Below, piece by piece: positions 4,821 through 50,499 of a stretch of DNA of 64,000 nucleotides; positions within the stretch are counted from its first letter, which is position 1, and each line of letters opens with the position of its first letter. Below the pieces are notes generated by a model. The model made no database searches. It was given only the letters and a program-made list of their open reading frames with translations, and was not told where the DNA came from. This stretch comes from Squalus acanthias (taxonomy: Eukaryota), in contig CM059432.1 of NCBI GenBank assembly GCA_030390025.1, positions 5,146,001 through 5,210,000 on the forward strand, written 5' to 3'. The position numbers were made by a program, and so were the translations under genes.

Positions 4821-5034
4821 GCATCGACACACAATGCCCTGTATCTACTTGTAGGATAGCAGAACACGGGGATCGCCGAGCAATCAGGACCGGATATTGG
4901 TGTCTTTTGCGCATTTATTTCTGAAGGCAGACCAAGTTAACACTCGGTGATGTGAAGGTTGGTTTGAATCGTAAAGTTTTATGCCACAGCAAGGTACAAC
5001 CAAAATTACTTACTTCAATGGCGTAAGTATGGAA

Positions 5035-10271: not shown

Positions 10272-10725
10272 AACAACAGAAAACGCTGGAAAAACTCAGC
10301 AGGCCAGGCAGCATCCGTGGAGAGAGAAAGAGAGTTGACGTTTCAGGTCGATGACCTTTCATCAGAACTGGGAAGAGCTGGAAATCAAATAGATTTAAGG
10401 CCAGGGTAAAGCTGGGAAAAGGGGGAGGGGATAAAGGAACAAAGGAGGAGATGAAGAGACATTAAGAGATATGCAAGGCTAGAGGTGGTGTTAATGTGAC
10501 AGATTAAGGCTGAATGAAGTGTGAAATCTACTGGCAGAATGAAGGACAGCTGCCAGCTTCTAGGAGGAAAAAAAAAAAAAGGTGGGGGGGACAAATAAAA
10601 GGGTGGATAAAATAAAATATAAATGTGATTGGAGCTGAGGTTATGATCTAAAATTGTTGAACTCGATATTGAGTCCAGAGGGCTGTAGCGTGCCTAAACG
10701 AAAGATGAGGTGCTGTTCCTCGAGC
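10272..10725 (-). mobile_element. Penelope family B 3' fragment with intact hammerhead (10333-10369, -)
   Basis: Near-identical to 29160-29617 and encodes LEEQHLIFRLGTLQPSGLNIEFNNFRS*. 14-bp TSD TTATGAAAGGTTAT. Confidence 0.88.
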
Positions 10726-12306: not shown

Positions 12307-12658
12307 AAAGTAAAATACTGCGGATGCTGGAAATCTAAGATAAAAACAAAAAGTGCTGGAAATACTCAAGTCAGGCAGCATCTGTGGCGAGAGAAACAGT
12401 TAACGTTTCAGGTTGCTGACCTTTTGTCAGAACTGGAAGAAGTTAGAGATTTAACAGGCCTCAAACACAGAAACAGAGATAGAGAAGTCAAGGAAGAGAT
12501 GGGAAGAGTTGGAGATGGACCACGTGAAGGCAAGAGAGACGTGAAATCGCTAACTTCCAGTTCCGACGAACGGTTAATGACCTGAAACGTTAACTCTGTT
12601 TCTCTCTCCACAGATGCTGCCTGACCTGCTGAGTGTTTCCAGCATTTTCTGTTTTTAT
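12307..12658. mobile_element. Older family B-related inverted pLTR pair with decayed hammerheads
   Basis: Diverged inverted arms. Cores are mutated: CTGACAA at 12398-12434 (-) and CCGACGA at 12559-12595 (+). Confidence 0.75.
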
Positions 12659-13940: not shown

Positions 13941-14710
13941 AAACTCCAGCTCTGTCATTCAGTAAAGATATCAAAGTTGGTTTTACAGTACAGCTTAAAA
14001 CTATGCCCTGGTCCGCTATCTACAACAGTTTACCAGGGCTTGATGTCAACACAGACATCTCCAGAAATCAGTGAGTATGACATTGAATATCAAGGCCATT
14101 ATTTTTTTTAAACTGGACAAAATCAGTTATTTACACAGCTGGTCCTGCTGCATTTGCTTCAGAATTCAACTAATTGGTCATTAATGCAACTCAAATTAGA
14201 AGAGCTTTGTTTCTCAGCTTAATAAGTTTTCTGAACTTTACAAAACACACAAAAGCTACAGCAGATGTGTAATCAGTGCAGTTTAAAACACACAGCTTAT
14301 CTTTAAAAACACAATATAAACTTTACCTTAATAAAACTTTTGAAATGTGTCTTCGAGCTCATGACGAGTTTCAAAAACAACTGAACAGAAATGACTAGAA
14401 GCTAAAAGAAAAAAAAATTCCAGCAGTTCAGTAAATGAGATGATACTGATACACCCCAAGAACTCAGATATAAATCTGCATTCAGCTCAAAGTCACAGCA
14501 TGGGGAGAGTGCAGGGGAGGCGATGGGGAAATAGCAACTACAAGGCCAGACTTTTCAAGAGAGGCTGAAAACTCTAAATGAAGATATTAAGAGTCAAAAA
14601 TGACAAGTCAATGGGTACATTTCATCAGATTGTGAAATAGGTTTTTAATATTTTTTGATGTAAACCTTATTTTCAAGATTGGAAATTTTCAGTTACTGAG
14701 AAACAAGATA

Positions 14711-15031
14711 CAGGAAACTCTTATCCGGCACCGACGGGACCGGCGTGGTGCCGGTTGATCAAAAAGTCCGGATTACAGAGAGGTATACTTACCAAGGTAC
14801 GAGAGCCCCGTACACGGCCACAGGTGCAGGAGCCCTGGTTACACGGCACTTGTGCAGGAGCCCCAGTTCCGCGGCACTTGTGCAGGAGTCCCGGTTACAC
14901 GGCCACAGGTGCAGGAACCCCGGTTACACGGCCACTAATATATAGTAAAACTTACCTGAACCTACTCCTGAATTTTGCCGGTTAAGAGAGATTTCCCGAT
15001 ATTTAGGTGCCGGTTAAAAGAGAGTTTCCTG
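14711..15031. mobile_element. Tc1/mariner-type MITE with internal ~29-bp tandem repeat
   Basis: TIR CAGGAAACTCT, TA TSD. Confidence 0.85.
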
Positions 15032-17235
15032 TAGTAGAAAAATTTACCCCAGCAAGCATTGGGTCATTTTATATTGTGACCGTAGAGCCAACATAAAATT
15101 GAATGGGAAATGTGTGCACATGGATTTACAATAGAAAAGTTGACAAATATTGTGACAACTATAAGGTTTGTGGACAGGAAGTGCAAGAATTTTTTATACA
15201 TATACACGTATAGTTGATCACAAAGGGGTCAAGACCAGTGTGACTCTCAGCGCCTCCACTGCCACTGGTCTTAATGTGACCACATGATGTTTCTTCATTT
15301 AAAAAGCTAGTGTCTGTAATTGAAAACCTATTTCACAATCTGATGAAATGTACCACAGAGCTTCAATAAAAGCCAAAATTACCAGGATGAGAATACTCCA
15401 AGTTAACCAGCACTATTCTGGATTTATGCCAATATTACCTAGGAACAGATCAGATATCATGTTTTTCCTATTCTGACCATGTACTACAGAAACTATGCTG
15501 AATAAGACATGCACCAATAATATATAACGGCCCGGGAGAAATATAAGATTTTGTAAAAGGGGCGTAAGCGTTGCTTAGTAAAAATTTACAATTATGCTTC
15601 TACCCAGTAATATGGCCATGGAACAGAATTATCCAATTAGTCAGGTACAAACAAGTATCACTCATTGACCTCTTCCCCCCCCACCCTTCTGCTCCTCAGT
15701 TCATTTGCACTGAGCCAGCAGATGTCTGATGAGTGATCTACATTGCAACATATGCACTGCACATATCAAGTGGTTATGTTCTCTAACACACTAGGAAAAA
15801 ATATCCAGTATAAGAATCCACAGACTTGAGCAGTTGGTTTGGGCTGGCACTCCAGTGCTGGGGAGAGTGTTGTCTTTCAGATGGGACGTTGGACCCAGGC
15901 CCCATCTGCCCTCTTGCGTGAAAGTGGGGGGACCCCATGGCATTATTCGGGGAGGATCTCCCCGGTGTCCTGACCAACGTTTGTCCCTCGCTCAGCATCA
16001 CTGGGGCAGATTGTCTTGTCAGGATCACATTGCAGTTTGTGGGAGCTTGCTGTGCGCACAGTGGCCAGCATGTTTCCTGCATTACAACAGTGACAACACT
16101 TCAAAAGTACTTCATTGGCTGTAAAGGGCTTTGGGACGTCCTGCGATCGTGAAAGGCGCTATAGAAATGCGAGTCTTTATTACCTTCTGTAATTCCCCTT
16201 GCAGCCTCATTCATTGCCTGCTACAACTGCAAACACATTGAAGCTACACAGAACCAGTTTGTGCCCTGAATCCCAGCTAATTGTTTTAACTGTCACTCTT
16301 GCGGGCAAGTAGACTGGCAGGAGCTACAGCAGGCACTGCCACCCTCCGTAAGCCAGTCCCATCTCGACTTAAACAACAGGTAACTGGCTGATGCAGGCTC
16401 GGAGTGGGAGACACCGACACTCTTAAAATAAAAATCCAATCATTCTCAGGATGTGGGCGTCGTTGGCAAGGTCGGCATTTATTGCCCATTCCTAGTTGCC
16501 TTGAGAAGATGGTGATGGTGGGCCACCTTCTTGATCCAATGAAATTTTTTGTAGTGGTTTAATATAACTTGATGCAGTTAAGGGAAAGCTAAATGAGCAT
16601 ATGAGGGAGAAAGGGATAGAAGGTTAAACTGAGAGGATGATGGAGGGGTGGGAGGAGTTTCGTGTGGAGCATAAACACCGGCATGAACCAGTAGGGACAA
16701 ATGGCCCATTCCTGTGCTGTAAATTCTATGTAATTCTACATAATTCATAAATCAACCACAGGTGCAATATCCACTTACATATTCCCAAGCCCTACATACT
16801 GTACATGAATTTTGTATTATCTTCAAATCTTACAGTAGTTTTTAAATTACTTCACCTTACTGGCTGCACTATTCAACTCACCAGATATCGATAAGGTTGT
16901 ATAGAAAAGTCTTCAAATTTTACACAACTTTCAAGGAGGCAACAGAAAAAAAATGGCTTGGCACTTCCAATATTTTCTACACTGCACGGCTTTCCAAAAA
17001 CAAAGTAACTCCAAAGTCTGAACACTCAGTTCTGAATCAAACTGGATTAAATATAAAGCTTCATAACTTACACTAGAAAGTAAACATAAGAAATAGGAGT
17101 AGGCCATTCGGCCCTTCGAGCCTGCTCAGCCATTCAGTATGACTGATCTCTGCCTCATCTCCACTTTCCTGCACTATCCCCATTTCCCTCGATTCCCTCA
17201 ATATCCAAAAATCTATCTCTGTCTTGAATATACTC

Positions 17236-22290: not shown

Positions 22291-22485
22291 CGCTGATATT
22301 GAGATCGTAATCTCCTGCTGTAATCACATTAGCAACCAATCCGTCTGCAGGCTGACTGGCAGAAACCACCTCGCTTAACAGCTTCCGAATGGCAGTCTGC
22401 TGTGGTGGCTGGGTCACAATGCCGGTAACACTGATCCTCAGGTTTTTAATAACATGGCTCTGGTTGTTGGGATCTCGCATGTGAA
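22291..22485 (-). CDS. TRAPPC8: TRAPPC8 coding exon 2
   Basis: Encodes (V)HMRDPNNQSHVIKNLRISVTGIVTQPPQQTAIRKLLSEVVSASQPADGLVANVITAGDYDLNIS. Pyrimidine-rich acceptor ...TCTAG, donor G|GTAAGC, 195 nt, in phase with exon 1. Confidence 0.96.
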
Positions 22486-24234
22486 CTAGACAGAAAGAAA
22501 AGTAGCAAACAAATCACTAAACAGATTTAATAAATTTTAAAAGTCTCACTGCAGTACCCTGACACTGCATGCTCCAATTCCATACCGATTAAAAAGCTAC
22601 CCGGAGTGCACGGAGACAGCACATTATTACACAAGAGATCCCCACCTCTCTGGAGACCATTCAGCCCATTGTGTCTGTGCCAGCTTCTTGAAAGAGCTAT
22701 CCCACTCCCAGCTCATTCTCCCATAGCTCTGCAACTTTTCTTTTTCAAGGATTTAGCCAATTCCTTTTTGAAAGTTACTATTGAATCTGCTTCCACCACC
22801 CTTTCAGGCAGCTCATTCCAGATCACAACAACTTGCTGCGTAAAAATCTTATCTCCCCTGCGGTTCTTTTGCCAACTATCTTAAATCTGTATCCTCTGGT
22901 TCCTTCCTGCCACTGGAAACAGTTTCTCCTTATTTATTCTATCAAAAGCCTTCATGATTTTGAAGACCTATTAAATCTCCCCTTTAACCTTCTCTGCTCT
23001 AAGGAGGACAACCCCAGCTTCTTTAGACTCTACACGTAACTGAAGTCCCGCAACCCTGGTATCATATGGGTAGGCCATTTAGGACTGAGATGAAGAGAAA
23101 TTTCTTCACTCAGAGGGTGGTGAATCTTTGGAATTCTCTACCCCAGAGGGCTGCGGATGCTGAATCCCTGAGTATATTCAAGGCTGAGATCGATAGATTT
23201 TTGGACTCTAGGGGAATCAAGGGATATGGAGATCGGGCAGGAAAGTGGAGTTGTAGTCGAGGATCAGCCATGATCTTATTGAATGGTGGAGCAGGCTCGA
23301 GTGGCTGTATGGCCTACTCCTGCTCCTAATTCTTAAGCTCTTATGTTCTTATTCCAGTAAATCTTTTCTGCATTCACTCCAAGGCCTTGACATCCTTCCT
23401 AACGTATGGCGCCCAGAATTAGACAATACTCTAGCTGAGGCCTAACCAGTGATTTATAACAGCTTAGCATAGCTTCATTGCTTTTGTACTCTATGCCACT
23501 ATTTATAAAGTCCAGGATCCCGTATGCTTTTTTAACAGCCTTCTCAACTTGTCTTACCACCTTCAAAAGATTTATGTATGCAAACCCCCAGGACACACTG
23601 TTCCTCCACCCCCTTTAAAATTGTGCCATTTCATTTACATTGCCTCTTCTTCCTCTTCCTGTCAAATGCACCCAAAAGCAAATCGAACTATATATCGTAA
23701 AAAAAACCATAGCAGCACATAAATGGTAGTAGTTTAGATTCATGCTTTTTAGTGTGTCGGGAATCTGCTCGATAATTAAACCTAGCAACTTCAATAGGTA
23801 GAAGCAGCAATGAATTCCAACCATTAACAATGATGGGGAGGAACTGGAGAACAAGAGTCAGTATGAAAAAACACGATTAAAAAAAGAATATTTAAATAAA
23901 TCATTGTATTTAGAGGGAAATTAAGCTACATTAAAAAACACAGCATGGATGTAACTATCACATCAGATACTTGTAAACTTTGAGCAGAAATGTAGAAAGA
24001 ACATGGATTTTCACAGCCGAACAGACTGTCTGCCTAGTTTTTATGATTGAATCGGCAACTGTACAAGTAACCTGCAAAGATGAGAATCTGTACAGTGTTT
24101 AAAAAAAACATGCAATTGTGTGAAAGATAATCAACAAATTGTGGAAAATATATAGACAGACACCAAATTAAAATGCACACCTGCAGTTCTAGATGCAAAA
24201 TATCCATTTTGTTTTCTACATTTTGTACACAGAG

Positions 24235-25230
24235 GACATAGACAGGCTGGTGGAATGGGCGGACACATGGTAGATGAAATTCAACGCAGAAACGTGCGAG
24301 GTGATGCAACGTGGCAGGAAGAGTGAGGAGAGACAAAGCTAAATGGTACAATTTTAAAGGAGGTGCAAGAACAGAGACACCTGGGGGTGTTTGTGCACAA
24401 ATCTTTGAAGATGGCAGGACAAGTTAACAAAGCAGTTAATAAAGCATTTGGGACCCTGGGCTTTATAAATAGAGGTCATGATGCGGAGATGCCGGTGTTG
24501 GACTGGGGTGGACAAAATTGAGAGGTCGCACAACACCAGGTTATAGTCCAACAGTTTTATTTCACCTGAGGAAGGAGCAATCGATAGCTCCGAAAGCTTG
24601 TGATTTCAAATAAAACTGTTGGACTATAACCTGGTGTTGTGCGACCTCTCAATTTTATAAATAGAGGCATAGAGTATGAAAGTCAGCAAGTTATACTAAA
24701 CCTTTATAAAACACTAGTTCGGCCCCAGCTGGAGTATTGTGTCCAATTCTGGGCACCGCACTTTAGGAAGGACGTGAAGGCTTTGGAGAGGGTGCAGAGG
24801 AGATTGACGAGAATGGTTCCAGATATGAGGGATTTCAGTTACATGGATAGACTGGAGAAGCTGAGGTTGTTCTCCTTAGAGCAGAGAAGGCTAAGAGGAG
24901 ATTTGATAGAGGTGTTTAAAATCATGAAGAGTTTAGATAGAGTAAATAAGATACTGTTTCCAATGGCTGAAGGGTCGATAACCGGAGGGCACAGATTTAA
25001 GCTGAATGGCAAAAGAACCAGAGGCGACATGAGGAAATGCGCTGCCTGATAGGGTGGTGGAAACAGATTCAATAGTGGCCTTCAAAAGGGAATCCGATAA
25101 ATATTTGGAGAAAAAATTGCAGGGATATGGGGAAAGAGCGAGGGTGTGGAACTAACTGGATCGCTCTTCGAAAGAGCCGGCACAGACTCGATGGGCCAAA
25201 TGGCCTCCTTCTGTGCTGTACTATTCTAGG
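24235..25230 (+). mobile_element. CR1 LINE 3' fragment
   Basis: LYKTLVRPQLEYCVQFW...SLEQRRLRGDLIEVFK. Confidence 0.85.
24476..24653. mobile_element. Penelope family A pLTR fold-back insertion with hammerhead (24562-24603, +)
   Basis: ~49-bp inverted arms flank the hammerhead. 14-bp TSD TTTATAAATAGAGG within a CR1. Confidence 0.85.
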
Positions 25231-28200
25231 ATTTTAACATTTTACTATTTCCTAGTTTAAATAAACTCACTTTTTTTTTTGGGGGGGGGGTGGGGGTGGG
25301 GGGTTAAATCTCAGACTTATTTTTGCTGGGAGTTGAAACATGATACACAAGCATGTGCCCATCATGTGACGTAAAGCACACAGATTACATCAGGTTGTCT
25401 ATTGCCTTAAATATCCAAGAACAAGCAGTGGGGCAACCCACTGTGATGCCTGTAGTGTATGATTCTGTTCTAGTATCACAGGTGGAGACGAAAGTCAGAG
25501 GAGGCCTTATTCAATGACAAACATTCAAATAGCAGCAGCCCATCAAACTCTAAAATCCACTAGTTTTGAAAATTATTTCCATATTAGACAAAGTACCACT
25601 AGGACGCTGAAACTGAGGGAACAAATACAAGAGTGAAGTAATAAAAGTAGGAAATGATAATGCAAAATGTATTTGTTCAGTAAACCTATTTATAATTAAT
25701 AAGATTTTGCGCTGCCTTCAAATATCAGTCTACTACAACTGATGTGTATTACTACCTCTTCCTCGTGGATTCATTAAGACAAACTTCAATGCCAGTACAT
25801 ATTTATCTGCTCGATGCTGCACTTGGGCATCAAGAGAAGCATCACCAATATCAAAGTTGTAGCATGAAGCTCATAAGATGCCAGCATGGACAGTTTCACG
25901 CATTGAACAGATCACGAGTGCATCGATTGCTAAATCTACTGAACTCAATCTAACAGACTATAGCATCATCCTCATATATTTTAGGAAATAAAAATCAAGG
26001 ATTCCATTCCAATCTCCGCTTTCAGTTGTTAGTCCAATTGAATTATTTCTGCAGAAATTAAGATGCTGCATGGTGCTACATGGCGATTAACAAGAAAAGT
26101 AATACAGAACGGCAACTTGGGAAAAGTTTTACTTTAACCTGATTCTTTTGCATAAAGTACAACAACTTGTATTTTTAAGCACCTTTAACGTAGTAAAACG
26201 TCCCAAGGCGCTTCACAGGAGTGTTAAGAAAAAAATTTGACACCGAGCCACATAAGGAGAAATTAGGGCAGGTGACCAAAAGCTTGGTCAAAGAGGTAGG
26301 TTTTAAGGAGCATCTTAAAGGAGGAAAGAGGGGTACAGAGGCGGAGAGGTTTAGGCAGGGAATTCCAGAGCTTAGGGCCTTGGCAGCTGAAGGCACGACC
26401 ACCAACTGTTGAGCGATTATAATCAGGGATGCTCAAGAGGACAGAATTAGAGGAGCGCAGGTATCTCAGGGGGTTGTAGGGCTGAAGGAGATTACAGAGA
26501 TAGGGAGAGGCGAGGCCATGGAGGGATTTGAAAACAAGGATGAGAATTTTGAGAGGCGTTGCTGAACTGGGAGCCAATGTAGATCAGTGAGCACAGAGGT
26601 GATGGGTGAACGGGACTTGGTGCGAGTTAGGACACGGGCAGCCGAGTTTTGGATCACCTCAAGTTTACGCAGGGTAGAATGTGGGAGGCCAGCCAGGGTG
26701 CGTTGGAATAGTCAAGTCTAGAGGTAACAAAGGCATGGATGAGGGTTTCAGCAGCGGATGAGCTGAGGCAAGGGCGGAGATGGGCGATATTACAGAGGTG
26801 GAAATAGGCGGTCTTAGTTATGCCGTGGATATATCGTCAAAAGCTCATTTCAGGGTCAAATATGACACCAAGGTTGCGAAACAGTCTGGTTCAGCCTCAG
26901 ACAAATGTTAGGGAGAGGGTTGGAGTCAGTGGCTAGGGAACGGAGTTTGTGGCGGGGACCGAAAACAATGGCTTCGGTCGTCCCAATATTTAATTGGAGA
27001 AAATTTCTGCTCATCCAGAACTGGCAATTTAGAGACCATGGAGGGTGTCGAGAGAAGAGGTAGTGAGGTAGAGCTGGGTGTCATCAGCGTACATGTGGAA
27101 ACTGACGCTGTGTTTTCGGATGATGTCGCCAAGGGGCAACATGTAGATGAGAAATAGGAGGGGGCCAAGGATAGATCCTTGGGGGACACCAGAGGTAACG
27201 ATGCAGGAGCAAGAAGAGAAGCCGTTGCAGGTGATTCTCTGGCTACAATTAGATAGATAAGAATGGAACCAGGTGAGTGCAGTCCCAACCAGCTGGATGA
27301 CGGTGCAGAGGCGTTGGAGAAGGATGGAGTGGTCAACCATGTCAAAGGCTGTAGACAAGTCAAGAAGGACGAGGAGGGATAGTTTACCTTTGTCACAGTC
27401 ACATAGGATGTCATTTGTAACTTTGATGAGCTGTTTCGGTACTGTGGCGGGGCGGAAACCTGATTGGAGGGATTCAAACATGGAGTTGCGGGAAAGATGG
27501 GCACGGATTTGGGAGGCAACAACACATTCAAGAACTTTGGAGAGGAAGGGAGGTTGCAGATGGGGTGGTAGTTTGCAAGGACGGAGGGGTCAAGGGTTGT
27601 TTTTTTGAGAGGGGTGATGACAGCAGATTTGAGGGAGAGGGGGACAGTACCTGAGGAGAGAGAACCGTTAACAATGTCAGCTAACATGGGAGCCAGAAAA
27701 GGAAGTTGGGTGGTCAGCAGTTTGGTGGGAATAGGGTCCAGGAAGTGGGTCTCATGGACAAGATGAGCACAGAGAGGTCATTAGGGGAGATCGGAGAGAA
27801 ACTGGAGAAAGATGAGAGTTCAGGGCAAGGGCAGGGGGAAATTTTAGAGGAAGTTTGGCCCGGTGGGCTAGGGGAAGAAAGGGAAGCGGCAGAGGCAGCT
27901 GAATGGATGGTCTCAATCTTAGAGACAAAGAAGTCCATGAGCTCCTCGCACATGCTGTCAGAGGGGAGGGTGGAGGAGACAGGGGAGAGGGGTTTAAGAA
28001 GACAGTTAGCAGCGGAGAATAGAAGCCAGGGTTTATCTTTGCATTCCAGATTGATTCTGGAATAGTGAGCAATTTTGGCAGACGAAAGCAGGACCCGATA
28101 ATGCTTTATGTGGACCAGCTAGATCTGGCGGTGAATGGCTAAACCAGTTGTCCGCCATATCCGTCCAAGTCTGCGTCCCTTGGACTTAAGGGAGCAAAGA

Positions 28201-28234
28201 TGAGGGCCGTACCAGGGGGAATGGCCAGGGTGTG

Positions 28235-28293
28235 AGAGGAGAGAGGAGAGAGGAGAGAGGAGAGAGGAGAGAGGAGAGAGGAGAGAGGAGAGA
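28235..28293. repeat. (GAGAG)n pentanucleotide microsatellite
   Basis: ~11 direct copies visible. Confidence 0.9.
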
Positions 28294-28793
28294 GTAATTG
28301 TTTTAATAGGGCATCAAAGGTGGTGGCAAGGGTGTGGTTGAGCAGATCAGCAGCTGCAGAAATGTCATGGTGAATGCAGGGCCAAAGGCTGGACAGTTGG
28401 GATTTTATAAGTGCAGTTGTAAGAGAGTTGGGAAGAGAGTTTTTTTCCAGGGGTGGACACAGAAGGAAGTAGGGTTGGAGGTGGTGGAAAGGGGGTGTGG
28501 GTGGAGAGTGATACGAGGAAGTGGTCAGAGATGGCCTTATCTGCAATTGACACGATGGGAGTAGTGAGGCCACGAGAGATGGCAAGGTCGAGGGGGTGGC
28601 CATGAATATGGGCTGGGGAGTTTACATGGAGGGAGAGATTAAGGGTGGATAGGAGGCTAGTGAACTCGGAAGAGAGCGCACATGATGAATTGAGAAGGAC
28701 ATTGAAATCACCGAGGATGAGAAGTCCGAAATAACAACAGAAAACGCTGGAAAAACTCAGCAGGCCAGGCAGCATCCGTGGAGAGAGAAAGAG

Positions 28794-28830
28794 AGTTGAC
28801 GTTTCAGGTCGATGACCTTTCATCAGAACT
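28794..28830 (-). ncRNA. Minimal hammerhead ribozyme (family B), sense in TRAPPC8 intron 1
   Basis: Exact reverse complement of 29521-29557. Confidence 0.85.
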
Positions 28831-29520
28831 GGGAAGAGCCGGAAATCAAATAGATTTAAGGCCAGGGTAAAGCTGGGAAAAGGGGAGGGGATAAAGGAAC
28901 AAAGGAGGAGATGAAGAGACATTAAGAGACATTAAGAGATATGCAAGGCTAGAGGTGGTGTTAATGTGACAGATTAAGGCTGAATGAAGTGTGAAATCCA
29001 CTGGCAGAATGAAGGACAGCTGCCAGCTTCTAGGAGGAAAAAAAAGGTGGGGGGGGACAAATAAAAGGGTGGATAAAATAAAATATAAATGTGATTGGAG
29101 CTGAGGTTCTATTACACTGTCCTCGGCCTATTACACTGTTCCACGGAAGCTCAGCGTAAGCTCGAGGAACAGCACCTCATCTTTCGTTTAGGCACGCTAC
29201 AGCCCTCTGGACTCAATATCGAGTTCAACAATTTTAGATCATAACCTCAGCTCCAATCACATTTATATTTTATTTTATCCACCCTTTTATTTGTCCCCCC
29301 CCACCTTTTTTTTCCTCCTAGAAGCTGGCAGCTGTCCTTCATTCTGCCAGTGGATTTCACACTTCATTCAGCCTTAATCTGTCACATTAACACCACCTCT
29401 AGCCTTGCATATCTCTTAATGTCTCTTAATGTCTCTTCATCTCCTCCTTTGTTCCTTTATCCCCTCCCCTTTTCCCAGCTTTACCCTGGCCTTAAATCTA
29501 TTTGATTTCCGGCTCTTCCC

Positions 29521-29557
29521 AGTTCTGATGAAAGGTCATCGACCTGAAACGTCAACT
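29521..29557 (+). ncRNA. Minimal type I hammerhead ribozyme (family B)
   Basis: AGTT-CTGATGA-A-AGGTC(ATC)GACCT-GAAA-CGTC-AACT, with GUC cleavage triplet and palindromic ACGT stem III. Confidence 0.85.
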
Positions 29558-30219
29558 CTCTTTCTCTCTCCACGGATGCTGCCTGGCCTGCTGAGTTTTT
29601 CCAGCGTTTTCTGTTGTTATTTCGGATTTCCAGCATCCGCAGTATTTTGCTATCGAGGATGAGAAGTCGTTTGGTGCAGAGGCTGAGAGGGGAAAGCAGT
29701 GAAGATATCTCGGTGATAAAATTTTTATGGTACTTGGGTGGGCGGGAGGGGGGCCGGAAGTATAATACCAATATAAGACAGCAAAAATCAAATATCCTTT
29801 CATGTTATGATTCTCCTAATTCACCAGCAGTGACATACCTGTGAATACCAATAATTGACTCGTTACATAGCTCAAAATGCTCCGTACGTGTTTGGGAGAA
29901 TATAATGCAAAATTTTCAGTTCAGTTGAACATAGTATGAAAATGTACACCCTCATTTGATTTTACTGAAAACATGTGGGCCCAGGTAACTTAAGAGCCTT
30001 GCTGTTTACTAAATCAGCAGTTTTAATTTCGAGCCCAACACATGCGCCTCATTGAACTTCTGTCCAGAACAAGACTTATTCTAATTATCTAAAAAGCGTA
30101 TGACTCGAGTTAAACACATTAAACCGCTTTGTTGTTAACTGGGAAGGATTTCAACATTTTTTAACGTGGGTGGGTAAATGTTCTTTTCAAACTGTCAGTA
30201 GATTGCAAGCCACATATAC

Positions 30220-30770
30220 AGAATTACAGAAATTTACAGCACAGAAGGAGACCATTCGGCCCATCGTGACTGTGCCGGCCGAAAAAAGTGCGTCCAGCCT
30301 AATCCCACTTTCCAGCTCTTGGGCCATAGCACTGTAGGTTACGGCACTTTTAGTGCATTCCAAGTACTTTTTAAATGCGATGAGGGTTTTTGCCTCTACC
30401 AGCCTTTCAGGCAGTGAGTTCCAGACCCCACCATCCTCTGGGTAAAATAAGCTCTCAACTCCCCTCTAATCCTTCTACCAATTACTTTAAATCTATGCCT
30501 CCTGGTTACTGACCTCTCTGCTAAGGGAAATAGGTCCTTCCTATCCACTCTATCTAGGCCCCTCATCATTTTATACACCTCAATCAAGTCTCCCCTCAGC
30601 CTCCTCTGTTCCAAAGAAAACAACCCCAGCCTAGCCAATCTTTCCTCATAGCTAAAATTCTCCAGTCCTCGCAACATCCTGGTAAATCTCCTCTGCACCC
30701 TCTCTAGTGCAATCACATCCTTCCTGCAATGTGGTGACCAGAACTGCACGCAGTATTCTAGCTGTGGCTA
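30220..30770 (-). mobile_element. CR1 LINE 3' fragment
   Basis: QFWSPH...LERVQRRFTRML...RRLRGDLIEVYK. Confidence 0.85.
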
Positions 30771-31315
30771 AACTGGCGTTTTATCCTGGGGCCAATACTT
30801 ATCCCTCAACCAACATCAATAAAAACAGATCATCTGGTCGTGATCATGCTGCTGTTTGTGGGAGCTTGCTGTGCGCAAATTGGCTGCCACATTACAACAG
30901 TGACTAAACTTCAAAAAGTGCTTCATTGGCTGCGAAGCGCTTTGGGAGGTCCGGTGGTCATGAAAGGCGCTATAGAAATGCAAGACTTTCTTTCTTATAT
31001 TCTAACCCCAACCTACCCAATCTTCATTGCATAGGATACACACAGCACAGAAACAGGCCATTCGGCCCAACTAGTCTGTGATATATAGACACAGGGAAAA
31101 GAGAGTGAAATGCAAGTGTTGTTGGTCTGTTTAAGGGGGGGGGGGGGGGAGGAAGAGAAGCCCAGAGCCAGCTGACAGGCCCTGGGTGGAGGCAGGGAAG
31201 GAGGAGAGGCTGAGGCTCCGAGTGAGCTCCGGCCACGGGGGGGAGGGATAATAAAAATCAACACCCAGGCCTAGCTGGGGCCTTCTTCCCTCCCGCCTCT
31301 CCTCTGGGTACAAAC

Positions 31316-39443: not shown

Positions 39444-41550
39444 GATTTGAGTACAGGAGCAAGGATGTCTTACGACAGTTATACAGGGCCTTGGTGAGAC
39501 TGAAGGGATAATTACAAGTCCTAGCCCTTTCGGACTACCCCAGATCAGGCGTATTCCCCAGACGTTCACCTTCAACTAAAGTTAGCAGTAGCCGGATCCT
39601 ATAAGACGCTTAATTGGGTCTAAAGGTCAGACTGCCTCTCCCTAAAGGAAAGGAACGGTCTGAAGATGTTACCGTCCTCTGGATAGTACTTTTAATAAGT
39701 TTAACTAGACTGTAACCTTCTGGATATTATGAGGGTCCGGAATACCTCCCAGAATTCTGCAACTCCTCTGAGTGTACAGAAATTGAGTTCGCGAGTTTAT
39801 ACAGAAATACTCTGTGAGATCATTCTAAAAATATATAGATTTATTAAAGAACCGACATTTAGTTAACATTTAGTTCTGGCAATCGCAACTTTAACCGTTC
39901 AAAATACAAATAGCTTACATTTCTTATCAGAGATCCTTATTCTCAAATCTTAACTTCGTTACATTTCCACACTTCTACTTATTTCTTAATCCAGAATATC
40001 CACCAAAATCAAATACCTTGATTACCCGAGACTCAGAGTTGTAAACTACAGAGCGTGCCTGTGAAGTTGAGAAACGCTTGCCCCGTTCAGCGACTTCTGA
40101 CTGTCCATTTGAAAAGCTCTTATTTTTATATCTTTTTTTGGTGGTTTATCCTTTGAAGTTTTCCTGCTGATGTTAGCTAATTGTCTCAAGTCATTCTCCA
40201 TTGAATTGTTTTCTATTCTTTATTGTCATTTCAGCTGTTAGCTTTTTGACTTGTCTCCTGTTTAGGTGTTTCAAAACCATCAAAAAAAACAATATGACAG
40301 TAGTATTTATTTGAAGTGATTCTTAGGAAGTCTTTCTATTGAATTTCTAATATCACTTAACTACTTGTAAGCCAGACGTCGTGTCTCCTAACTATTCCAT
40401 TTTCAATACAAACACAATGTAATTGCTTGGTGTCATCGATTGATATTATATTTTCAAAGCCTTTCTGTAGGTATATTTTACAACTTGTAAATTGAAAACA
40501 CTTCTCTTAGGGTGTTTACTTGTTTTCTTGCTATCTCAATTGGTTGCATATTTAATCGTGTTTCCTGTTTCTAAGTTTAACATAAAACTATTTTACGACA
40601 GGTATTTCTTTTACCTGATGTCATTTTTTCAAAGGCACTTGTTTTTTTAAATGTTCTGTGCACCTGTTCGACGTGTTAAATTTCAACACTTTACTTGGGT
40701 CATTCCATTGTGTTGGTTCCAATGTTCAGACATAGAGGAACCTCCAGCCTGCTGTTTCAATAGGGGCCTTGTCTCTGTATTTACAGCCCAATTCCCATTT
40801 CAAAGCTTGTTTTCACAGCTTTGTGTTAACAAACCAGCTTATCTCATCAGCCTGTATTTCTGTTTTACGGCCTGTGTCGCTGAGGCTTTCAGATTTTTAA
40901 CCCCAGTTTGTTATGTTTTAATATTATCAAAAATCTGTTTATAGGATGGTGTATTTTTCTGAAATATGGCTATTCCATTACAAGACCACACCTGGAGTAC
41001 TGTGTGCAGTTTTGGTCTCCTTACCTAAGAAAGGATATACTTGCCATAGAGGGAGTGCAGCGAAGGTTCACCAGACTGATTCCTGGGATGGCAGGACTGT
41101 CGTATGAGGAGAGATTGGGTCGACTAGGCCTGTATTCACTAGAGTTTAGAAGAATGAGAGGGGGATCTCATTGAAACGTATAAAATTCTGACAGGGCGAG
41201 ACAGACTGGATGCAGGGAGGATGTTTCCCCTGGCTGGGGGGGTCTAGAACGAGGGGTCACAGTCTCAGGATACGGGGTAGGACATTTAGGACTGAGATGA
41301 GGAGAAATTTCTTCACTCAGAGGGTGGTGAACCTGTGGAATTCTCTACCACAGAAGGCTGTGGAGGCCAAGTCACTGAATATATTTAAGAAGGAGATAGA
41401 TAGATTTCTAGACACAAAAGGCATCAAGGGGTGTGGGGAGAGAGCGGGAATATGGTATTGAGATAGAGGATCAGCCATGATCATATTGAATGGCGGAGCA
41501 GGCTCGAAGGGCCGAATGGCCGACTCCTGCTCCTATTTTTCTATATTTCT
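39444..41550 (+). mobile_element. CR1 LINE (copy A) inserted into the SPATA2-like exon, carrying a nested solo LTR
   Basis: CR1 ORF2 C-terminus and tail. AATTC is duplicated at 39439-39443 and 41551-41555. Confidence 0.85.
39501..40982 (-). mobile_element. 1482-bp solo LTR-like insertion
   Basis: TG...CA ends and 4-bp TSD AGAC splitting a CR1. Minus-strand TATAAAA at ~40125 and AATAAA at ~39842. Confidence 0.75.
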
Positions 41551-41899
41551 AATTCATTTTCATCCGTTTTAAAACAAGTGTCTCATTTTGTCTTTCTTCC
41601 ACGATGTGGAGGCAGCCCATCCTATCTTCAACATGTCTTTTTCTTCCCTTTAGCATCTCTCGCTCATTGCCCCCCAGCGCCTTAACGCGTGAATCCATCT
41701 CTGCCAAACGTTCGCATTCCAGCTGGGCAAGGAGGAACTCAAAAGCCAGCTTCTTCAAGTGCTGGGATCCATCGGGGCCCCGGTAGCAGTAAACCTCTAT
41801 CTCCTGCTCCTGGTGATAACCGACACACGCCAACAATTTGAGGACATCCACTTCACGCATGGCGGGCCAAACATAGTGTACAAAGGCAGGTGCGAAGAC
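41549..41899 (-). CDS. SPATA2-like second coding exon, duplicated distal copy
   Basis: Nearly identical to 43785-44135 (one internal substitution, L/V) with its own intact acceptor. Also truncated by a CR1 tail. Confidence 0.65.
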   Translation of the reverse strand, partial: VFAPAFVHYVWPAMREVDVLKLLACVGYHQEQEIEVYCYRGPDGSQHLKKLAFEFLLAQLECERLAEMDSRVKALGGNEREMLKGRKRHVEDRMGCLHIVEERQNETLVLKRMKMN

Positions 41900-42232
41900 C
41901 TGGAAAACAGAAACACACACATACATTCTGATAATGCGTGTTACACTGTGTAGTATATCACACAGGAAAAACAGAAAGGCAGAGTATTATTTAAATGGTG
42001 ATAGATTGGGGAAATGTTGATGTACAAAGGGACCTGGGTGTCCTTGTACACCAGTCACTGAAAGCAAACATGCAGGTGCAGCAAGCAATTAGGAAGGCAA
42101 ATGGTATGTTGGCCTTCATTGCAAGAGGATTTGAGTACAGGAGCAAGGATGTCTTACTACAGTTGTACAGGGCCTTGGTGAGACCACACCTGGAGTACTG
42201 TGTGCAGTTTTGGTCTCCTTACCTGAGAAAGG

Positions 42233-43261
42233 TGTAAGCATCGGCGCAGGCCCCAAGGATTTTTGTATCGGACATTTTGTATGATTGTTGCTGCTGATTG
42301 ACCAGCAGCCTGTTTGGAGAAGATGGGAGGGGCCCAGGTGTTCGAATTGGACAGTAGATTCCAGCCAGGCCGACAAACTGATTACAGGAGAATGTCTGAG
42401 ACAAAGGAAGGCCATTGGAAACTAATGGGAAACTACTTAACCCGGGATCGGGTAAGAAGTGCAGCCCATCATCTGCCATTAACACTAGCAGCTCGATGGG
42501 ATAGCCCCGAAAGGTGGGAAACCAGACAAAGAAGGGTGATTAAAAAGACATCACTGCAATACACAGACCTTAATGAACTTTTAGGGTATAAGAGAAGGCA
42601 GCTTTGGCCATTCTCGCTCTCTCTCGCTTCCTTCGCCTTCACGTGCCCTCATCCCTGAACCAAGAACCAAGCCCTCCGTCTGAGACGGAGAGAAGAAACC
42701 ACCACGAGCGACAAGAGCCTCGCCTTGCTCTTCGACTGTAGGAACGAACCTCGAAACTGGGACTTGGATACTGCATCGGCGATACGGAACCAGGAGACAC
42801 GTTCTACACAGGGGAGCAGCGAGCAAGAAAACAGACCATCGGGGTGAGCATTGTCCGAGCCCACGCATCCTTAAGACCACCAGTACTGTGTGAGGGGGTG
42901 TTGTGTGTCCCAACCAGTCCAGAGGGGTTTAGTGGGAAGGTTCTGTGTGTATTATACAGTGTATGTTCTGGGGTTTGTGGGACAAGTCCATGTTATACTC
43001 TGTATAGCAACACAGTGTGATTTTAGGCGTCTTAATACGAGACAGGGGCCTGTTCAACGGGCCAAGTTGTATTGTTGTACTGTTTGTTTTACGCCACCAG
43101 GCATTTTACATACCGGAGGCGGGTGTGTGTGTTAACTTTATTAAACACTGTACGGTTGAGTCTGAAAAGCTTGTCTGTGTTCCAATCCTGTTCACCGTAA
43201 TTCCTGTCATTGAGAACTAAGTAGGAGAGGTGATTCGAACCACCAAGGCAAACCACCTACA
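42233..43261 (+). mobile_element. ~1.03-kb solo LTR nested in CR1 copy B (~41963-43787)
   Basis: TGTAAG...CTACA ends, TSD AAGG, TATAA at ~42587, ATTAAA at ~43140. Confidence 0.8.
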
Positions 43262-43784
43262 AAGGATATAATTGCCATAGAGGGAGTGCAGCGAAAGTTC
43301 ACCAGACTGATTCCTGGGATGGCAGGACTGTCGTATGAGGAGAGATTGGGTCGACTAGGCCTGTATTCACTAGAGTTTAGAAGAATGAGAGGGGATCTCA
43401 TTGAAACGTATAAAATTCTGACAGGGCTAGACAGACTGGATGCAGGGAGGATGTTTACCCTGGTTGGGTGGGGGGGGGTCTAGAACGAGGGGTCACAGTC
43501 TCAGGATACGGGGTAGGACATTTAGGACTGAGATAAGGAGAAATTTCTTCACTCAGAGGGTGGTGAACCTGTGGAATTCTCTACCACAGAAGGCTGTGGA
43601 GGCCAAGTCACTGAATATATTTAAGAAGGAGATAGATAGATTTCTAGACACAAAAGGCATCAAGGGGTGTGGGGAGAGAGCGGGAATATGGTATTGAGAT
43701 AGAGGATCAGCCATGATCATATTGAATGGCGGAGCAGGCTCGAAGGGCCGAGTGGCCGACTCCTGCTCCTATTTTTCTATGTTT

Positions 43785-44135
43785 CTATTTCATTTTCATC
43801 CGTTTTAAAACAAGTGTCTCATTTTGTCTTTCTTCCAGGATGTGGAGGCAGCCCATCCTATCTTCAACATGTCTTTTTCTTCCCTTTAGCATCTCTCGCT
43901 CATTGCCCCCCAGCGCCTTAACGCGTGAATCCATCTCTGCCAAACGTTCGCATTCCAGCTGGGCAAGGAGGAACTCAAAAGCCAGCTTCTTCAAGTGCTG
44001 GGATCCATCGGGGCCCCGGTAGCAGTAAACCTCTATCTCCTGCTCCTGGTGATAACCGACACACGCCAACAATTTGAGGACATCCACTTCACGCATGGCG
44101 GGCCAAACATAGTGTACAAAGGCAGGTGCGAAGAC
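43785..44135 (-). CDS. SPATA2-like second coding exon (C-terminal half of PUB domain), proximal copy, ends at a CR1-derived stop
   Basis: Acceptor TTTTCCAG| then VFAPAFVHYV...LLACVGY...KKLAFEFLLAQLECE...EDRMGC, resembling SPATA2 TYTGPFVYYV...ILSCMGY...FELFLAKVECE...EDVRGC. The stop lies in the abutting CR1 tail. Confidence 0.8.
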   Translation of the reverse strand, partial: VFAPAFVHYVWPAMREVDVLKLLACVGYHQEQEIEVYCYRGPDGSQHLKKLAFEFLLAQLECERLAEMDSRVKALGGNEREMLKGRKRHVEDRMGCLHILEERQNETLVLKRMKMK

Positions 44136-44468
44136 CTGGAAAACAGAAACACACACATACATTCTGATAATGCGTGTTACACTGTGTAATATATCACACA
44201 GGAAAAACAGAAAGGCAGAGTATTATTTAAATGGTGATAGATTGGGGAAATGTTGATGTACAAAGGGACCTGGGTGTCCTTGTACACCAGTCACTGAAAG
44301 CAAACATGCAGGTGCAGCAAGCAATTAGGAAGGCAAATGGTATGTTGGCCTTCATTGCAAGAGGATTTGAGTACAGGAGCAAGGATGTCTTACTGCAGTT
44401 GTACAGGACCTTGGTGAGATCACACCTGGAGTACTGTGTGCAGTTTTGGTCTCCTTACCTAAGAAAGG

Positions 44469-45494
44469 TGCAAGCATCAGCGCAGGCCCCAAGGATTTTT
44501 GTATCGGACATTTTGTATGATTGTTACTGCTGATTGACCAGCAGCCTGTTTGGAGAAGATGGGAGGGGCCCAGGTGTTCGTGATGGACAGGAGATTCCAG
44601 CCAGGCCTACAAACTGATTACGGGAGAATGTCTGAGACAAAGGAAGGCCATTGGAAACTAATGGGAAACCACTTAACCCGGGATCGGGTAAGAAGTGCAG
44701 CCCATCATCTGCCATTAACACTAGCACCTAGATGGGATAGCCCCGAAAGGCGGGAAACCAGACAAAGAAGGGTGATTAAAAAGACATCACTGCAATACAC
44801 AGACCTTAATGAACTTTTAGGGTATAAGAGAAGGCAGCTTTGGCCATTCTCACTCTCTCTCGCTTGCTCTCGCCTTCACGTGCCCTCATCTCTGAACCAA
44901 GAACCGAGCACTCTGTCCGGGACGGAGAGAAGAAACCACCAGGAGCGACAAGAGCCTTGCCTTGCTCTTCGACTGTAGGAACGAACCTCGAAACTGGGAC
45001 TTGGATACTGCATCGGCGATACGGAACCAGGAGACACGCTCTACACAGGGAAGCAGCGAGCAAGAAAACGGACAATCGGGGTGAGCATTGTCCGAGCCCA
45101 CGCATCCTTAAGACCACCGGTACTGTGTGAGGGGGTGTTGTGTGTTCCAACCAGTCCAGAGGGGTTTAGTGGGGAGGTTCTGTGTGTATTATATAGTGTA
45201 TGTTCCGGGGTTTCTGGGACAAGTCCATGTTATACTCTGTATAGCAACACAGTGTGATTTTAGGCATCTTAATACGAGACAGGGGCCTGTTCAACGGGCC
45301 AAGTTGTATTGTTGTACTGTTTGTTTTACGCCACCAGGCATTTTACATACCGGAGGCAGGTGTGTGTGTTAACTTTATTAAACACCGTCCGGTTGAGTCC
45401 GAAAAGCTTGTCTGTGTTTCCAATCCTGTTCACCGTAATTCCTGTCGTCTAGAACTAGAGAGGTGATTCGAACCACCAAGGCAAACCACCTACA
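44469..45494 (+). mobile_element. Duplicate of the ~1.03-kb solo LTR in CR1 copy C (~44199-46020)
   Basis: Same sequence family, same insertion site and same AAGG TSD as 42233-43261. Confidence 0.8.
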
Positions 45495-47583
45495 AAGGAT
45501 ATAATTGCCATAGAGGGAGTGCAGCGAAGGTTCACCAGACTGATTCCTGGGATGGCTGGACTGTCGTATGAGGAGAGATTGGGTCGACTAGGCCTGTATT
45601 CACTAGAGTTCAGAAGAATGAGAAGGGATCTCATTGAAACGTATAAAATTCTGACAGGGCTAGACAGACTGGATGCAGGGAGGATGTTTACCCTGGTTGG
45701 GTGGGGGGGGGTCTAGAACGAGGGGTCACAGTCTCAGGATATGGGGTAGGACATTTAGGACTGAGATAAGGAGAAATTTCTTCACTCAGAGGGTGGTGAA
45801 CCTGTGGGATTCTCTACCACAGAAGGCTGTGGAGGCCAAGTCACTGAATATATTTAAGAATGAGATAGATAGATTTCTAGACACAAAAGGCATCAAGGGG
45901 TATGGGGAGAGAGCGGGAATATGGTATTGAGACAGAGGATCAGCCATGATCATATTGAATGGCGGAACAGGCTCGAAGGGCTGAATGGCCTACTCTTGCT
46001 CCTATTTTTCTATGTTTCTATCACGATAGTTCTGTTGCACGCCTGATTTTTAGAACAATGTGCTACGCGAGGAGGAGATATAAATTGAAGAAAGAGCCAT
46101 ATAAAATGTACATTTAGATTGAGTAGATTGGACCTATACTCTCTGGAGTTTAGAAGAATGAGAGGTGATCTCATTGAAACGTATAAGATTCTAAGGGGGA
46201 TTGACAGGGTAGATGCTGAGAGGCTGTTTCCCCCTGGTTGGAGAGTCTAGAACTCGGGGGCAGAGTCTCAGGATAAGGGGTCGGCCGTTTACGACAGAAA
46301 TCACGTTAATCTGTGATGTTCCTTGCAATCGAATCGCCGGCCGATAGTCACTGTCTAGGCTCACACCTGAAGACTGGCCAGCACGAGTGAGGAGCTCGGC
46401 AGCTCGCCATCGAGTTGTACTCCAATATGTCACTCCATTCCGAAGAGAGGAGAAAACTGAGCAGTGGAAGGAAGTAAAAAAGACGACGACTTCAATGTCC
46501 TTTCCATAATAGCGTGCCTAAAACTGCACAGCAAACTCTAACTGTGGCCTAACCAATGTTTTATATAAATGAATCATTAATTCTTCACTTTTGTACTCTA
46601 CGCCCCTATTTATAAAATCCAAAATTCTGTTGGCTTTATCTACCAGCACTCATGCTTTCAAGGAATTATGTATTTCAATCTTTCAGTCTCTCTGTTCATC
46701 CCCACCCTCCAGTGTCTTTCCATTAAGTGTGAACTCCTATTGCTTGTTTTTTCTCCCAAAACGAACTACCTCACACTTATCCGCATTAAATCGCCTCTGC
46801 CACCCATCTGCCCCGTCCTTTAACCTGTACCCTGCGGCAGACTTTTGCACTGTTTATCCACAGACAACAAAAGAGGTGGCAGCACTGACCTTGGGTACGC
46901 CACTTACAACCCTTCTCTAGTGCAAGCAACATTCATTATCCGTAACACGTAAGAACATAAAAATTGGAGCAGGAGTCGGCCATACGGCCCCTCGAGCCTG
47001 CTCCGCCATTCGATAAGATCATGGCCGATCTTCGATCTCAACTCCACTTTCCCACCCGATCCCCATATCCCTCGATTCCCCTAGAGTCCAAAAATCTATC
47101 GATCTCAGCCTTGAATATACTCAACGACTGAGCATCCACAGCCCCCTGGGGTAGAGAATTCCAAAGATTCACAAGCCTCTGAGTGAAGAAATTTCTCCTC
47201 ATCTCAGTCCTAAATGGCTGACCCCTTATCCTGAGACTATGCCCCCTAGTTCTAGACTCTCCAGCCAGGGGGAAACAGACTCTCCGCATCTACCCTGTCA
47301 ATCACCCTTCAGAATCTTATATGTTTCAATGAGATCACCTCTCATCCTTCTAAACTCCAGAGAGTATAGGCCCAATCTAATCAATCGCTCCTCATAGGAC
47401 AACCCTCTCATCCCAGGAATCAATCCCATTTGTTTTATGTCCCTCAACCAATGTTCTATTGATTCTGTTACTTTTCCTCTTAGGCTTTCTGAAATATCCA
47501 TTTATACTGCATCTACTACAGTTCCTTTATCTATCCAATTGAACACTTTTTTTTTTAAACGTACCATCGTCAAACAAGACTTT

Positions 47584-48427: not shown

Positions 48428-49271
48428 TTTGTCTCAACAAATTTCGATGTGCATTTCTAAATCCATACTAACTTTATTTCAAATTATTGATTGTAAAAGA
48501 GTTTACCCACAACTGAAATTATCATATTACTTATCAACAACAACAACTTGCATTTATATAGCACCTTTAACGTAGTAAAACATCCCAAGACACTTCACAG
48601 GAGCGATTATAAAATGAAATTTGACACTGAGCCACATAAGGAGATATGAGGGCAGATTGGTCAAAGAGGTCGGTTTTAAGGAGCGTCTTAAAAGGAGGAG
48701 AGAGAGGTAGCGAGGTGGAGAGGTTTAGGGAGGGAATTCCTGAGCTAAGGGCCTTGGCAGCCGAAGGCACGGCCACCAATGGTGGAGCGATTAAAATCGG
48801 GGATGCACAAGAGGCCAGAATTAGAGGAGCGCAGATATCTCAGGGGGTCGTGGGGCTGGAGGAGATTACAGATTTAGGGAGGGGGTGAGGCCATGGAAGG
48901 ATTTGAAAACAAGGATGAGAGTTTTAAAAATTGAAGTGTTGCTTAACCGGGAGCCAGTGTAGGTCAGCGAGCACAGGGGGTGATGAGTGAACGGGACTTG
49001 GTGCGAGTTAGGACACGGGGCAGCAGAGTTTTGGATGTCCTCAAGTCTGCAGAGGGTAGAAAGTGGGAGGCCGGCCAGCAGTGCATTGGAAAAGTCAAGT
49101 CTAGAGGTAACAAAGGCAGGGATGAGGCAGGGGAGGAGTCGAGCAATGTTCTAGAGATGGAAATAGGCCGTCTTAATGACGGCGCAGATATGTGGTCGGA
49201 AACTCATCTCAGGGTAAAATATGACACCAAGGTTGCGAACAGCACAGGCCATTGTGGAAAACTGAACTCAC

Positions 49272-49640
49272 CTTAATTCTTTTAAATTCTTTTCTCCATG
49301 GATAAATCAGAAGGTTGACGCAAAGCTTTTCAAAGACTTCATAAGCTTTTTGAAGAGCATTGAAGCTGGATGATTTTTCTCTGCTCAATGCATTGCTAAT
49401 AATCTGGGAAAAATGTATTTCACACCGTTCACTGGGTTCGCGGTGGCCTTTCAGCCATTCAGTCACGAGGGCACGGATTGCTGTTTCCTCGCGAGAGGCC
49501 TCACCAACACTGTTTAATTTGGATTCCCGGAAACGCACATATCTTTGACACAGATTTTCTTTTTCAGCCTCCGTATATAACTTGCCAGAGTTAAAAATGT
49601 TCATCCGCAGATGCAGAACTTTGCAAAAGGTCTTGCCCAT
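49272..49640 (-). CDS. SPATA2-family (SPATA2/SPATA2L-like) protein, first coding exon, N-terminal half of PUB domain
   Basis: Open frame ending ...ALQKAYEVFEKLCVNLLIYPWRKEFKRIK resembles SPATA2 NLFLYPWKKEFRSIK. Phase-0 donor AAG|GTGAGT falls at the SPATA2 intron position. Acceptor TTCAG/TGCAG lies just before ATG 49640; the true start Met is uncertain. Confidence 0.85.
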
Positions 49641-50499
49641 CTGCAACTGAATGGACAAATATAATCATTGCATAATTTATTAGGATTAACCGGAGGGATT
49701 CTTCCCACATACAAATAGTCAACCTTACAATAATCTAACATTTTAATGTTTTAAACAATACAATTAAAAGTTTCTCCTTGTTATTGGCCCGATCCTGTTC
49801 CTCGACTACAGGTTGCCCCTCGGCAACATCATCCGTAAACACGGGGTCAGTTTCCATTTTTACAACAACGACATCTTGCATTTCTCTAGCGCCTTTAATG
49901 TAGTAAAACGTCCCAAGACGCTTCACAGGAGCGATTATCAAACAAAATTTGACACTGAGCCACATCAAGAGATATCAGGACAGGTGACGAAAAGCTTGGT
50001 CAAAGAGGTCGGTTTTAAGGAACGACTTAAAGGAGGAGAGAGAGGTGGACATTGACATTCACACTGAAAACAAAAGAAGGCTGAGGGGTGACCTAAATAG
50101 AGGTCTTTAAAATTATGAAACATTTTGATAGAGTAGATACAGAGAGAATGTTTCCACTTGTGGGGAAGAGCAAAACTAGAGGCCATCAATATAAGATTGT
50201 CACCAAGAAATCCAATAGGGAATTCAGAAGAAACTTCTTTACCCAGAGAGTGGTGAGAATGTGGATCTCGCTACCACAGGGAGTGGTTGAAGTGAATAGT
50301 ATAGATGCATTTAAGGGGAGGCTGGACAAGCATATGAGGGAGAAGGGAATAGAGGGTTACACTGATAGAGTTAGATGAGGAAAGACGGGAGGAGGCTCGA
50401 GTGGAGCATAAACGCCGGCATGGACTGGTTGGGCCGAATGGCCTGTTTCTGTGTCGTATATCCTATGTAATCCTATGTAAAAAGACACCTGTAGAACTG

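Follow-up and report, generated by a model that had tools for sequence, protein, structure and literature searches.

The insertion and its host locus

The window, i.e. the whole 64,000-nucleotide stretch of Squalus acanthias DNA that was analysed, carries on its minus strand the first coding exon of TRAPPC8 (31472-31316), whose 52 residues are 100% identical to the TRAPPC8 entries of two sharks; the next exon begins at 22485. The intron between them holds an older LINE, judged from its motifs to be probably of the L2 type, and within this LINE lies the inverted-repeat insertion dealt with here. A previous sequence-only reading had placed the insertion in TRAPPC8 intron 1; its position in the intron that follows the first coding exon was corroborated, but the numbering is uncertain since an additional intron in the 5'-UTR is possible. 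The relevant features are the following:

22486..31315, minus strand: TRAPPC8 intron after the first coding exon, GT-AG, ~8.8 kb (exon matches and splice signals)
26926..29790, minus strand: older LINE holding the insert (RT match downstream; endonuclease-like frame)
28712..28726, plus strand: left TSD copy, 15 bp; its last 6 nt can pair with element RNA 29625-29630 (5 Watson-Crick pairs, 1 G-U)
28725..29108, minus strand: inverted arm, repeating the 3' UTR/pLTR in head-to-head orientation to the main body, without tail; first 2 nt common with the TSD
28794..28830, minus strand: minimal type I hammerhead, sense to the TRAPPC8 pre-mRNA, predicted cut after 28798
29109..29120, plus strand: inversion joint, where the 12 nt of 29128-29139 are directly duplicated (putative templated insertion)
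29119..29244, plus strand: end of the endonuclease ORF, last 41 codons and stop of a Penelope-like element (PLE) GIY-YIG endonuclease
29243..29626, plus strand: direct arm, 3' UTR/pLTR of the 5'-truncated main body
29521..29557, plus strand: main-body hammerhead (minimal type I), antisense to TRAPPC8, cleavage predicted after 29553
29627..29653, plus strand: one-sided tail, 27 nt, between the two main 3'-end sites of the family, overlapping a small predicted stem-loop (29618-29644)
29654..29668, plus strand: right TSD copy, 15 bp
10272..10725, minus strand: sister copy of the same subfamily, with an identical hammerhead and its own 14-bp TSD, lacking inversion and tail

The perfect 384-bp inverted repeat anticipated from the sequence was borne out in full: 28725-29108 and 29243-29626 are exact reverse complements (384/384 identical, every homopolymer having the same length), and the pairing stretches to 388 positions with a single mismatch that falls inside the TSD. 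This lack of differences bounds the divergence of the arms below ~0.8%, which indicates a recent insertion event unless the arms have been homogenised. The 134-bp spacer (29109-29242), thought to encode an endonuclease tail, is indeed the end of a GIY-YIG ORF whose stop codon occupies 29242-29244, and the expected 15-bp TSD was recovered as exact copies at both borders of an insert spanning 28727-29653, this sequence occurring exactly twice within the whole window. The insert is asymmetric, the right arm being continued by the 27 nt of element sequence at 29627-29653 that have no counterpart on the left side; compensatory changes were sought in the stem-loop of this tail and none was found. 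At the inner joint there is neither palindrome nor microhomology; instead, it shows the direct duplication of 12 nt taken from 19 nt downstream. Removal of the insert and one TSD copy leaves the frame of the older LINE open across the empty site which, together with the TSD, supports a real insertion, and other copies of this LINE run through the insertion site, as judged from loose ends before 29654 in the contigs of one sequencing run.

Several further features of the window deserve a mention. Two of the four AAUAAA hexamers in the ~8.8-kb TRAPPC8 intron derive from the antisense arm (29274 and 29291, minus strand) and a third one, at 24561, lies beside another PLE hammerhead; they are possible cryptic poly(A) signals, those of the antisense arm being masked if a hairpin forms. 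A shark TRAPPC8 exon of ~30 codons (3385-3296) is present in the X1 isoforms compared and missing from the X4 isoform, an alternative exon. The window also contains a long tandem array of 15/17-bp units with a C/T-rich plus strand (61560-63830), large direct repeats ~2.2 kb apart (41200-46020) with a near-identical 145-codon frame (41549-41986 and 43785-44222), a 740-bp segment with internal short repeats that is bounded by a 36-bp inverted repeat (97%) and is possibly a small DNA transposon (14614-15354), and an open frame on the minus strand resembling a host exon of a neighbouring gene (49209-49664).

A young Penelope-like element

The 41-residue endonuclease tail alone matched no Pfam family; it did match five proteins, one of which returned long relatives in a HMMER search. 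Among the 154 proteins gathered with one relative, a preselected set, 89 match the tail, and so do 11 of the 25 proteins with at least 590 aa, always at the C terminus. Two of the three long relatives that were scanned pass the Pfam GIY-YIG cut-off, the third one scoring below it. All 11 long tail-matching relatives carry the QxxGxxMG RT motif as well as a CX2-5CxxC Zn-finger linker between RT and EN, the truncated locus itself being devoid of the RT and of its own linker. According to the accessible text of Craig et al. 2021 (PMC8557442), this linker marks Neptune/Nematis and is absent in Penelope/Poseidon; the comparison with the relatives therefore points to a putative endonuclease tail of the Neptune/Nematis rather than the Penelope/Poseidon type. 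A literature search on shark Neptune elements retrieved nothing relevant.

The portions of the literature at hand describe the typical PLE insertion as having an inverted copy, usually head-to-head, a one-sided tail and TSDs (PMC8557442, PMC3846280), and the insert displays this EN+ PLE layout: a pLTR with hammerhead, a head-to-head inverted 5' copy, a tail on one side and a TSD. With Pen2a_Av and others, as presented in the consulted parts of Arkhipova et al. 2013 (PMC3846280) and Craig et al. 2021 Fig. 2 (PMC8557442), it shares the head-to-head inverted 5' copy, the tail at one end, the TSD, the 5' truncation and the insertion into another non-LTR element. It departs from this type in its tail (27 nt versus the 30-40 quoted), its TSD (15 bp versus 8-10 in the rotifer examples), its arms (384 bp versus ~180-220) and the lack of a palindrome at the inverted joint. 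All in all, the insert is very probably a 5'-truncated, young and dead-on-arrival EN+ Penelope-like element, a typical by-product of PLE retrotransposition.

The near-identical copy noted earlier at 10272-10725 differs by 2 substitutions over 453 aligned bases and 4 indels, corresponding to three homopolymer lengths and one 10-bp tandem duplication, and the claim that the family is very young is supported as far as a young Penelope-type family is concerned. This sister copy lies in the following intron of TRAPPC8, in sense orientation, and ends at about the inner of the two 3' sites; a solo copy with such an end indicates that the inner site serves ordinary priming. Head-to-head pairs make up 3 of the 10 recognised PLE-derived places in the window and belong to at least two families, partners having been searched within 3 kb. 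The insertion of a second family at 5023-5871, with its head-to-head pair at 5035-5859, has identical arms (5036-5147 and 5657-5768, 112/112), a 12-bp TSD, an endonuclease tail, a 91-nt tail and hammerheads with G-C at stem II, its inner joint probably overlapping the arm by 4-6 nt. An old head-to-head PLE pair at 12309-12658 is 82% alike, with both hammerhead cores altered, the tail on the left and no TSD of 8 bp or more.

To look at the family beyond the window, Logan contigs of four runs (X1, X5, X7 and X8) were aligned to 29109-30200, which comprises the spacer, one arm and the right flank. Considering the 24 best-supported loose ends (1318 further), the main end points of family contigs were 29623-29627 and 29651-29655 in 4/4 runs; among these 24, 96, 69 and 151 contigs (X1, X5 and X8) end behind 29623 and 4 behind 29627 (X7), and 124, 83, 149 plus 141, and 31 plus 12 contigs end behind 29651-29655. 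Both sites match the outer ends of the insert, i.e. 29626 for the inverted arm and 29653 for the main body. Upstream of the inversion joint the family sequence continues differently, loose ends of family contigs placing the departure at ~29115. Joints of partial head-to-tail tandems were found at other loci (29655 to 29221 in X1; 29653 to 29160 and 29654 to 29158 in X8), strand-changing joints numbered 0 among the 15 joints listed out of 17, and no contig bridges the insertion to the unique flank. In both organism-A samples, the flank contigs show 3 differences from the window over 485 bases, and the unique flank is uncovered in the putative RNA run. A>G differences were confined to the host LINE, where DNA runs show them equally; none of these contig results bears on editing, expression or polymorphism. 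The summed depth on the element is ~1e5 times that of the flank, a figure that is not a copy number, and organism B covers the middle of the UTR far less than organism A does, consistent with a possible lineage-restricted recent expansion.

Two more regularities emerged from these alignments. The 5' end of the sister copy and two organism-B head-to-tail joints begin within a few bases of each other at 29156-29160, and depth climbs about fourfold or more past 29145, perhaps denoting either a favoured 5' terminus or a non-autonomous unit of 495 nt. Just before the hammerhead, at 29519, contigs switch to a different upstream sequence (154, 116, 174 and 37 contigs), other subfamilies sharing the hammerhead-tail module with a different UTR.

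Hammerheads and the predicted RNA hairpin

The proposal of paired hammerheads holds in that there is one per arm, but these lie on opposite strands and each transcript contains one sense and one antisense motif. In both, the core is intact, stems I and II count 4 and 5 bp, respectively, and stem III is a palindrome without loop. Between the two PLE families of the window, the ACGU/AGCU palindrome (15.1-16.1) changes in concert with stems I and II. No hammerhead was recognised by Rfam at E up to 1; minimal hammerheads are devoid of stem III. In 2014, Cervera and De la Pena reported dual minimal hammerheads lying on opposite strands at distances of 100-700 bp (PMC4209133, in the text available), and our motifs share with those of metazoan PLEs the full core, the 4-bp stem I, the extra base before stem II, the palindromic loopless stem III and the occurrence as two copies on opposite strands ~700 bp apart. 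They differ in stem II, which here has 5 bp and opens at 10.1-11.1 with A-U instead of the G-C conserved in minimal hammerheads; no shark example appears in the results and discussion of that study. A non-LTR retrozyme was also considered and rejected: as outlined in the accessible part of 10.64898/2026.07.22.740005, it needs tandem direct units with same-strand hammerheads, and here one unit is direct and the other inverted.

As had been suggested, the TRAPPC8 pre-mRNA is predicted to form a long dsRNA hairpin, a 384-bp duplex of -828.3 kcal/mol (z -68), and to sequester the sense hammerhead at 28794-28830 (-93.7 kcal/mol for a 49-nt piece); the antisense arm is transcribed first on the TRAPPC8 strand and the sense hammerhead would therefore be paired off. 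It is plausible that the hairpin could act as an ADAR or siRNA substrate. siRNAs from Penelope inverted repeats have been proposed in Drosophila virilis (PMC3136932, in the part consulted), and a literature search on ADAR in cartilaginous fish found nothing relevant. A cruciform in the DNA, also put forward, is unlikely with a 134-bp spacer, since long spacers strongly lower extrusion: the available sections of PMC10164571 and PMC7999016 report a ~40-fold drop in extrusion when the spacer grows from 12 to 20 bp, ~20-fold fewer rearrangements from 12 to 200 bp, and eukaryotic forks no longer stalled with a 52-bp spacer. Given this steep fall, a DNA hairpin at this locus would need long single-stranded DNA.

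It is tempting to go one step further and regard the structure as a selected off switch or silencing device, in which the hairpin would block hammerhead cleavage of TRAPPC8 and feed ADAR or Dicer. The predicted stability of the duplex, the early synthesis of the antisense arm and the attribution of D. virilis Penelope siRNAs to long inverted repeats (PMC3136932, same part) speak for it, and the identical sense hammerhead of the sister copy, 18.4 kb downstream in the same pre-mRNA, could be a dimer partner. Nonetheless, a built-in off switch is unsupported: inverted copies are typical products that arise at insertion whatever the context (PMC8557442, PMC3846280, in the text at hand), and the sister copy, placed in sense within the same gene, lacks an inverted arm. 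Moreover, this ribozyme requires another copy in sense; single minimal hammerheads did not cleave and dimers cleaved at low levels in vitro (PMC4209133, as far as its accessible text goes), leaving little to switch off. The A-U pair at 10.1-11.1 argues in the same direction, and so does the modelled active double hammerhead (-9.9 kcal/mol), less stable than the inactive dimer (-23.7 kcal/mol) in a comparison of secondary structure only. We therefore consider such a device quite improbable; if the insert is the typical by-product proposed above, the hairpin and the buried hammerhead are in all likelihood by-products themselves with no selected function.

Origin of the inverted arm

The reading that we prefer, with somewhat better than even confidence, is priming by both target strands on two template copies whose cDNAs were joined by end-joining. 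The nicks set by the endonuclease on the two target strands would lie 15 bp apart. From the bottom strand, reverse transcription would begin at the outer of the two start sites (29653) and stop at ~29117. The top strand would pair over 6 nt with another template copy at the inner site (29626), provided by a separate RNA or by the other pLTR of a tandem transcript, and would be extended to 29243. The two cDNA ends would then be joined with a templated insertion of 12 nt, of which the duplication at the joint and the departure of the family sequence at ~29115 would be the mark. Biochemical precedent comes from PAc, a Poseidon element of Anolis carolinensis, whose protein, a predicted dimer, cuts and extends both target strands in vitro and starts at two adjacent internal sites bounding the tail (Frangieh et al. 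2024, PMC11167929). These start sites, near a stem-loop, are shared with the insert, but PAc belongs to the Penelope/Poseidon clade and primed without homology on AT-rich targets, whereas the relatives of the shark tail carry the Neptune/Nematis Zn linker and a short microhomology is seen here on a purine-rich target; inverted copies are not addressed in that paper (PMC11167929). Our search retrieved no statement on two-strand Penelope priming; such a model may already be contained in Arkhipova 2006, in Evgen'ev and Arkhipova 2005 or in the 2017 study of dimeric PLE hammerheads. In LINE-1 twin priming, the second target strand primes internally on the RNA and the cDNAs are joined at microhomology. 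The inverted L1 piece does not duplicate the body, whereas 384 nt are copied twice here, which demands two template copies.

Fold-back synthesis is the main competitor and, in our estimation, a serious though less probable one: the polymerase would switch from the RNA to the new cDNA, or self-prime on an antisense template, and copy back, the intermediate being resolved by the endonuclease at the tail boundary. Self-priming and EN-mediated resolution are the suggestions preferred by published authors (PMC8557442, PMC3846280, in the passages at hand), and the arms agree at every homopolymer, as they also do over 112/112 positions in the second insertion, whereas the sister copy differs at three homopolymers; such an identity fits fold-back or homogenisation equally well. 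The lack of strand-changing joints among the 15 listed out of 17 and of any contig bridging the locus likewise weighs against two-strand priming, as well as against fold-back being demonstrated here. On the other hand, the inner joint offers neither palindrome nor microhomology for a fold-back, just the direct 12-nt duplication, and the inverted arm ends where non-inverted copies also end. Outer ends lying on family 3'-end sites and the 6-nt match to the target favour two-strand priming over fold-back. That pairing, with its single G-U, is expected by chance at 1313 of 121970 positions (1.1%) over 11 registers, and the insertion of the second family shows 5 nt of pairing with one G-U followed by a mismatch (5042/121970, 4.1%), under a rule allowing one wobble that was fixed post hoc on n=2, G-T mismatches being tolerated in DNA too. 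The self-primed inverted pLTR model of Arkhipova 2013 finds no support at the joint, the expected palindrome being missing and a 12-nt direct duplication taking its place.

Explanations outside retrotransposition fare worse. Perfect arms, a locus that no contig bridges and flank contigs of both organism-A samples that differ at 3/485 bases are what an assembly or library artefact such as a fold-back chimeric read could leave behind, but the exact TSD, the asymmetric tail, the templated insert at the junction and the LINE frame open across the empty site make it very unlikely; the arm is besides confined to element sequence, and in a chimera the flanking DNA would be mirrored as well. Were the insert a MITE or foldback DNA transposon having long inverted repeats at its termini, inverted repeats adjoining a TSD would be accounted for; this reading is contradicted by the asymmetric ends, by a spacer consisting of a retroelement ORF tail and by a one-armed sister copy that moved with its own TSD, so that we hold it extremely unlikely.

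Biological meaning

It could be speculated that two-template priming by a dimeric enzyme combines in sharks with hairpins that undergo editing or dicing, shut down the parent family in trans and hide its ribozyme, thus making up a self-limiting retroelement. We regard this scenario as improbable, its selected-silencing half being itself unlikely; if it were true, every intronic inverted insertion would be born as a long perfect RNA hairpin, and hairpin copies would be favoured over solo sense copies in essential genes. For the biology of the TRAPPC8 locus the insert is of little importance. Its value is that of a clean, unmutated record of one insertion event, legible to the single base at its two ends, in the tail and at the inner joint; very many such copies exist in sharks. 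This record bears on how Penelope inverted repeats form, a matter called still undefined in the accessible text of published work (PMC8557442, PMC3846280), and on whether PLE hairpins may be a main source of the edited or small RNAs of cartilaginous fishes.
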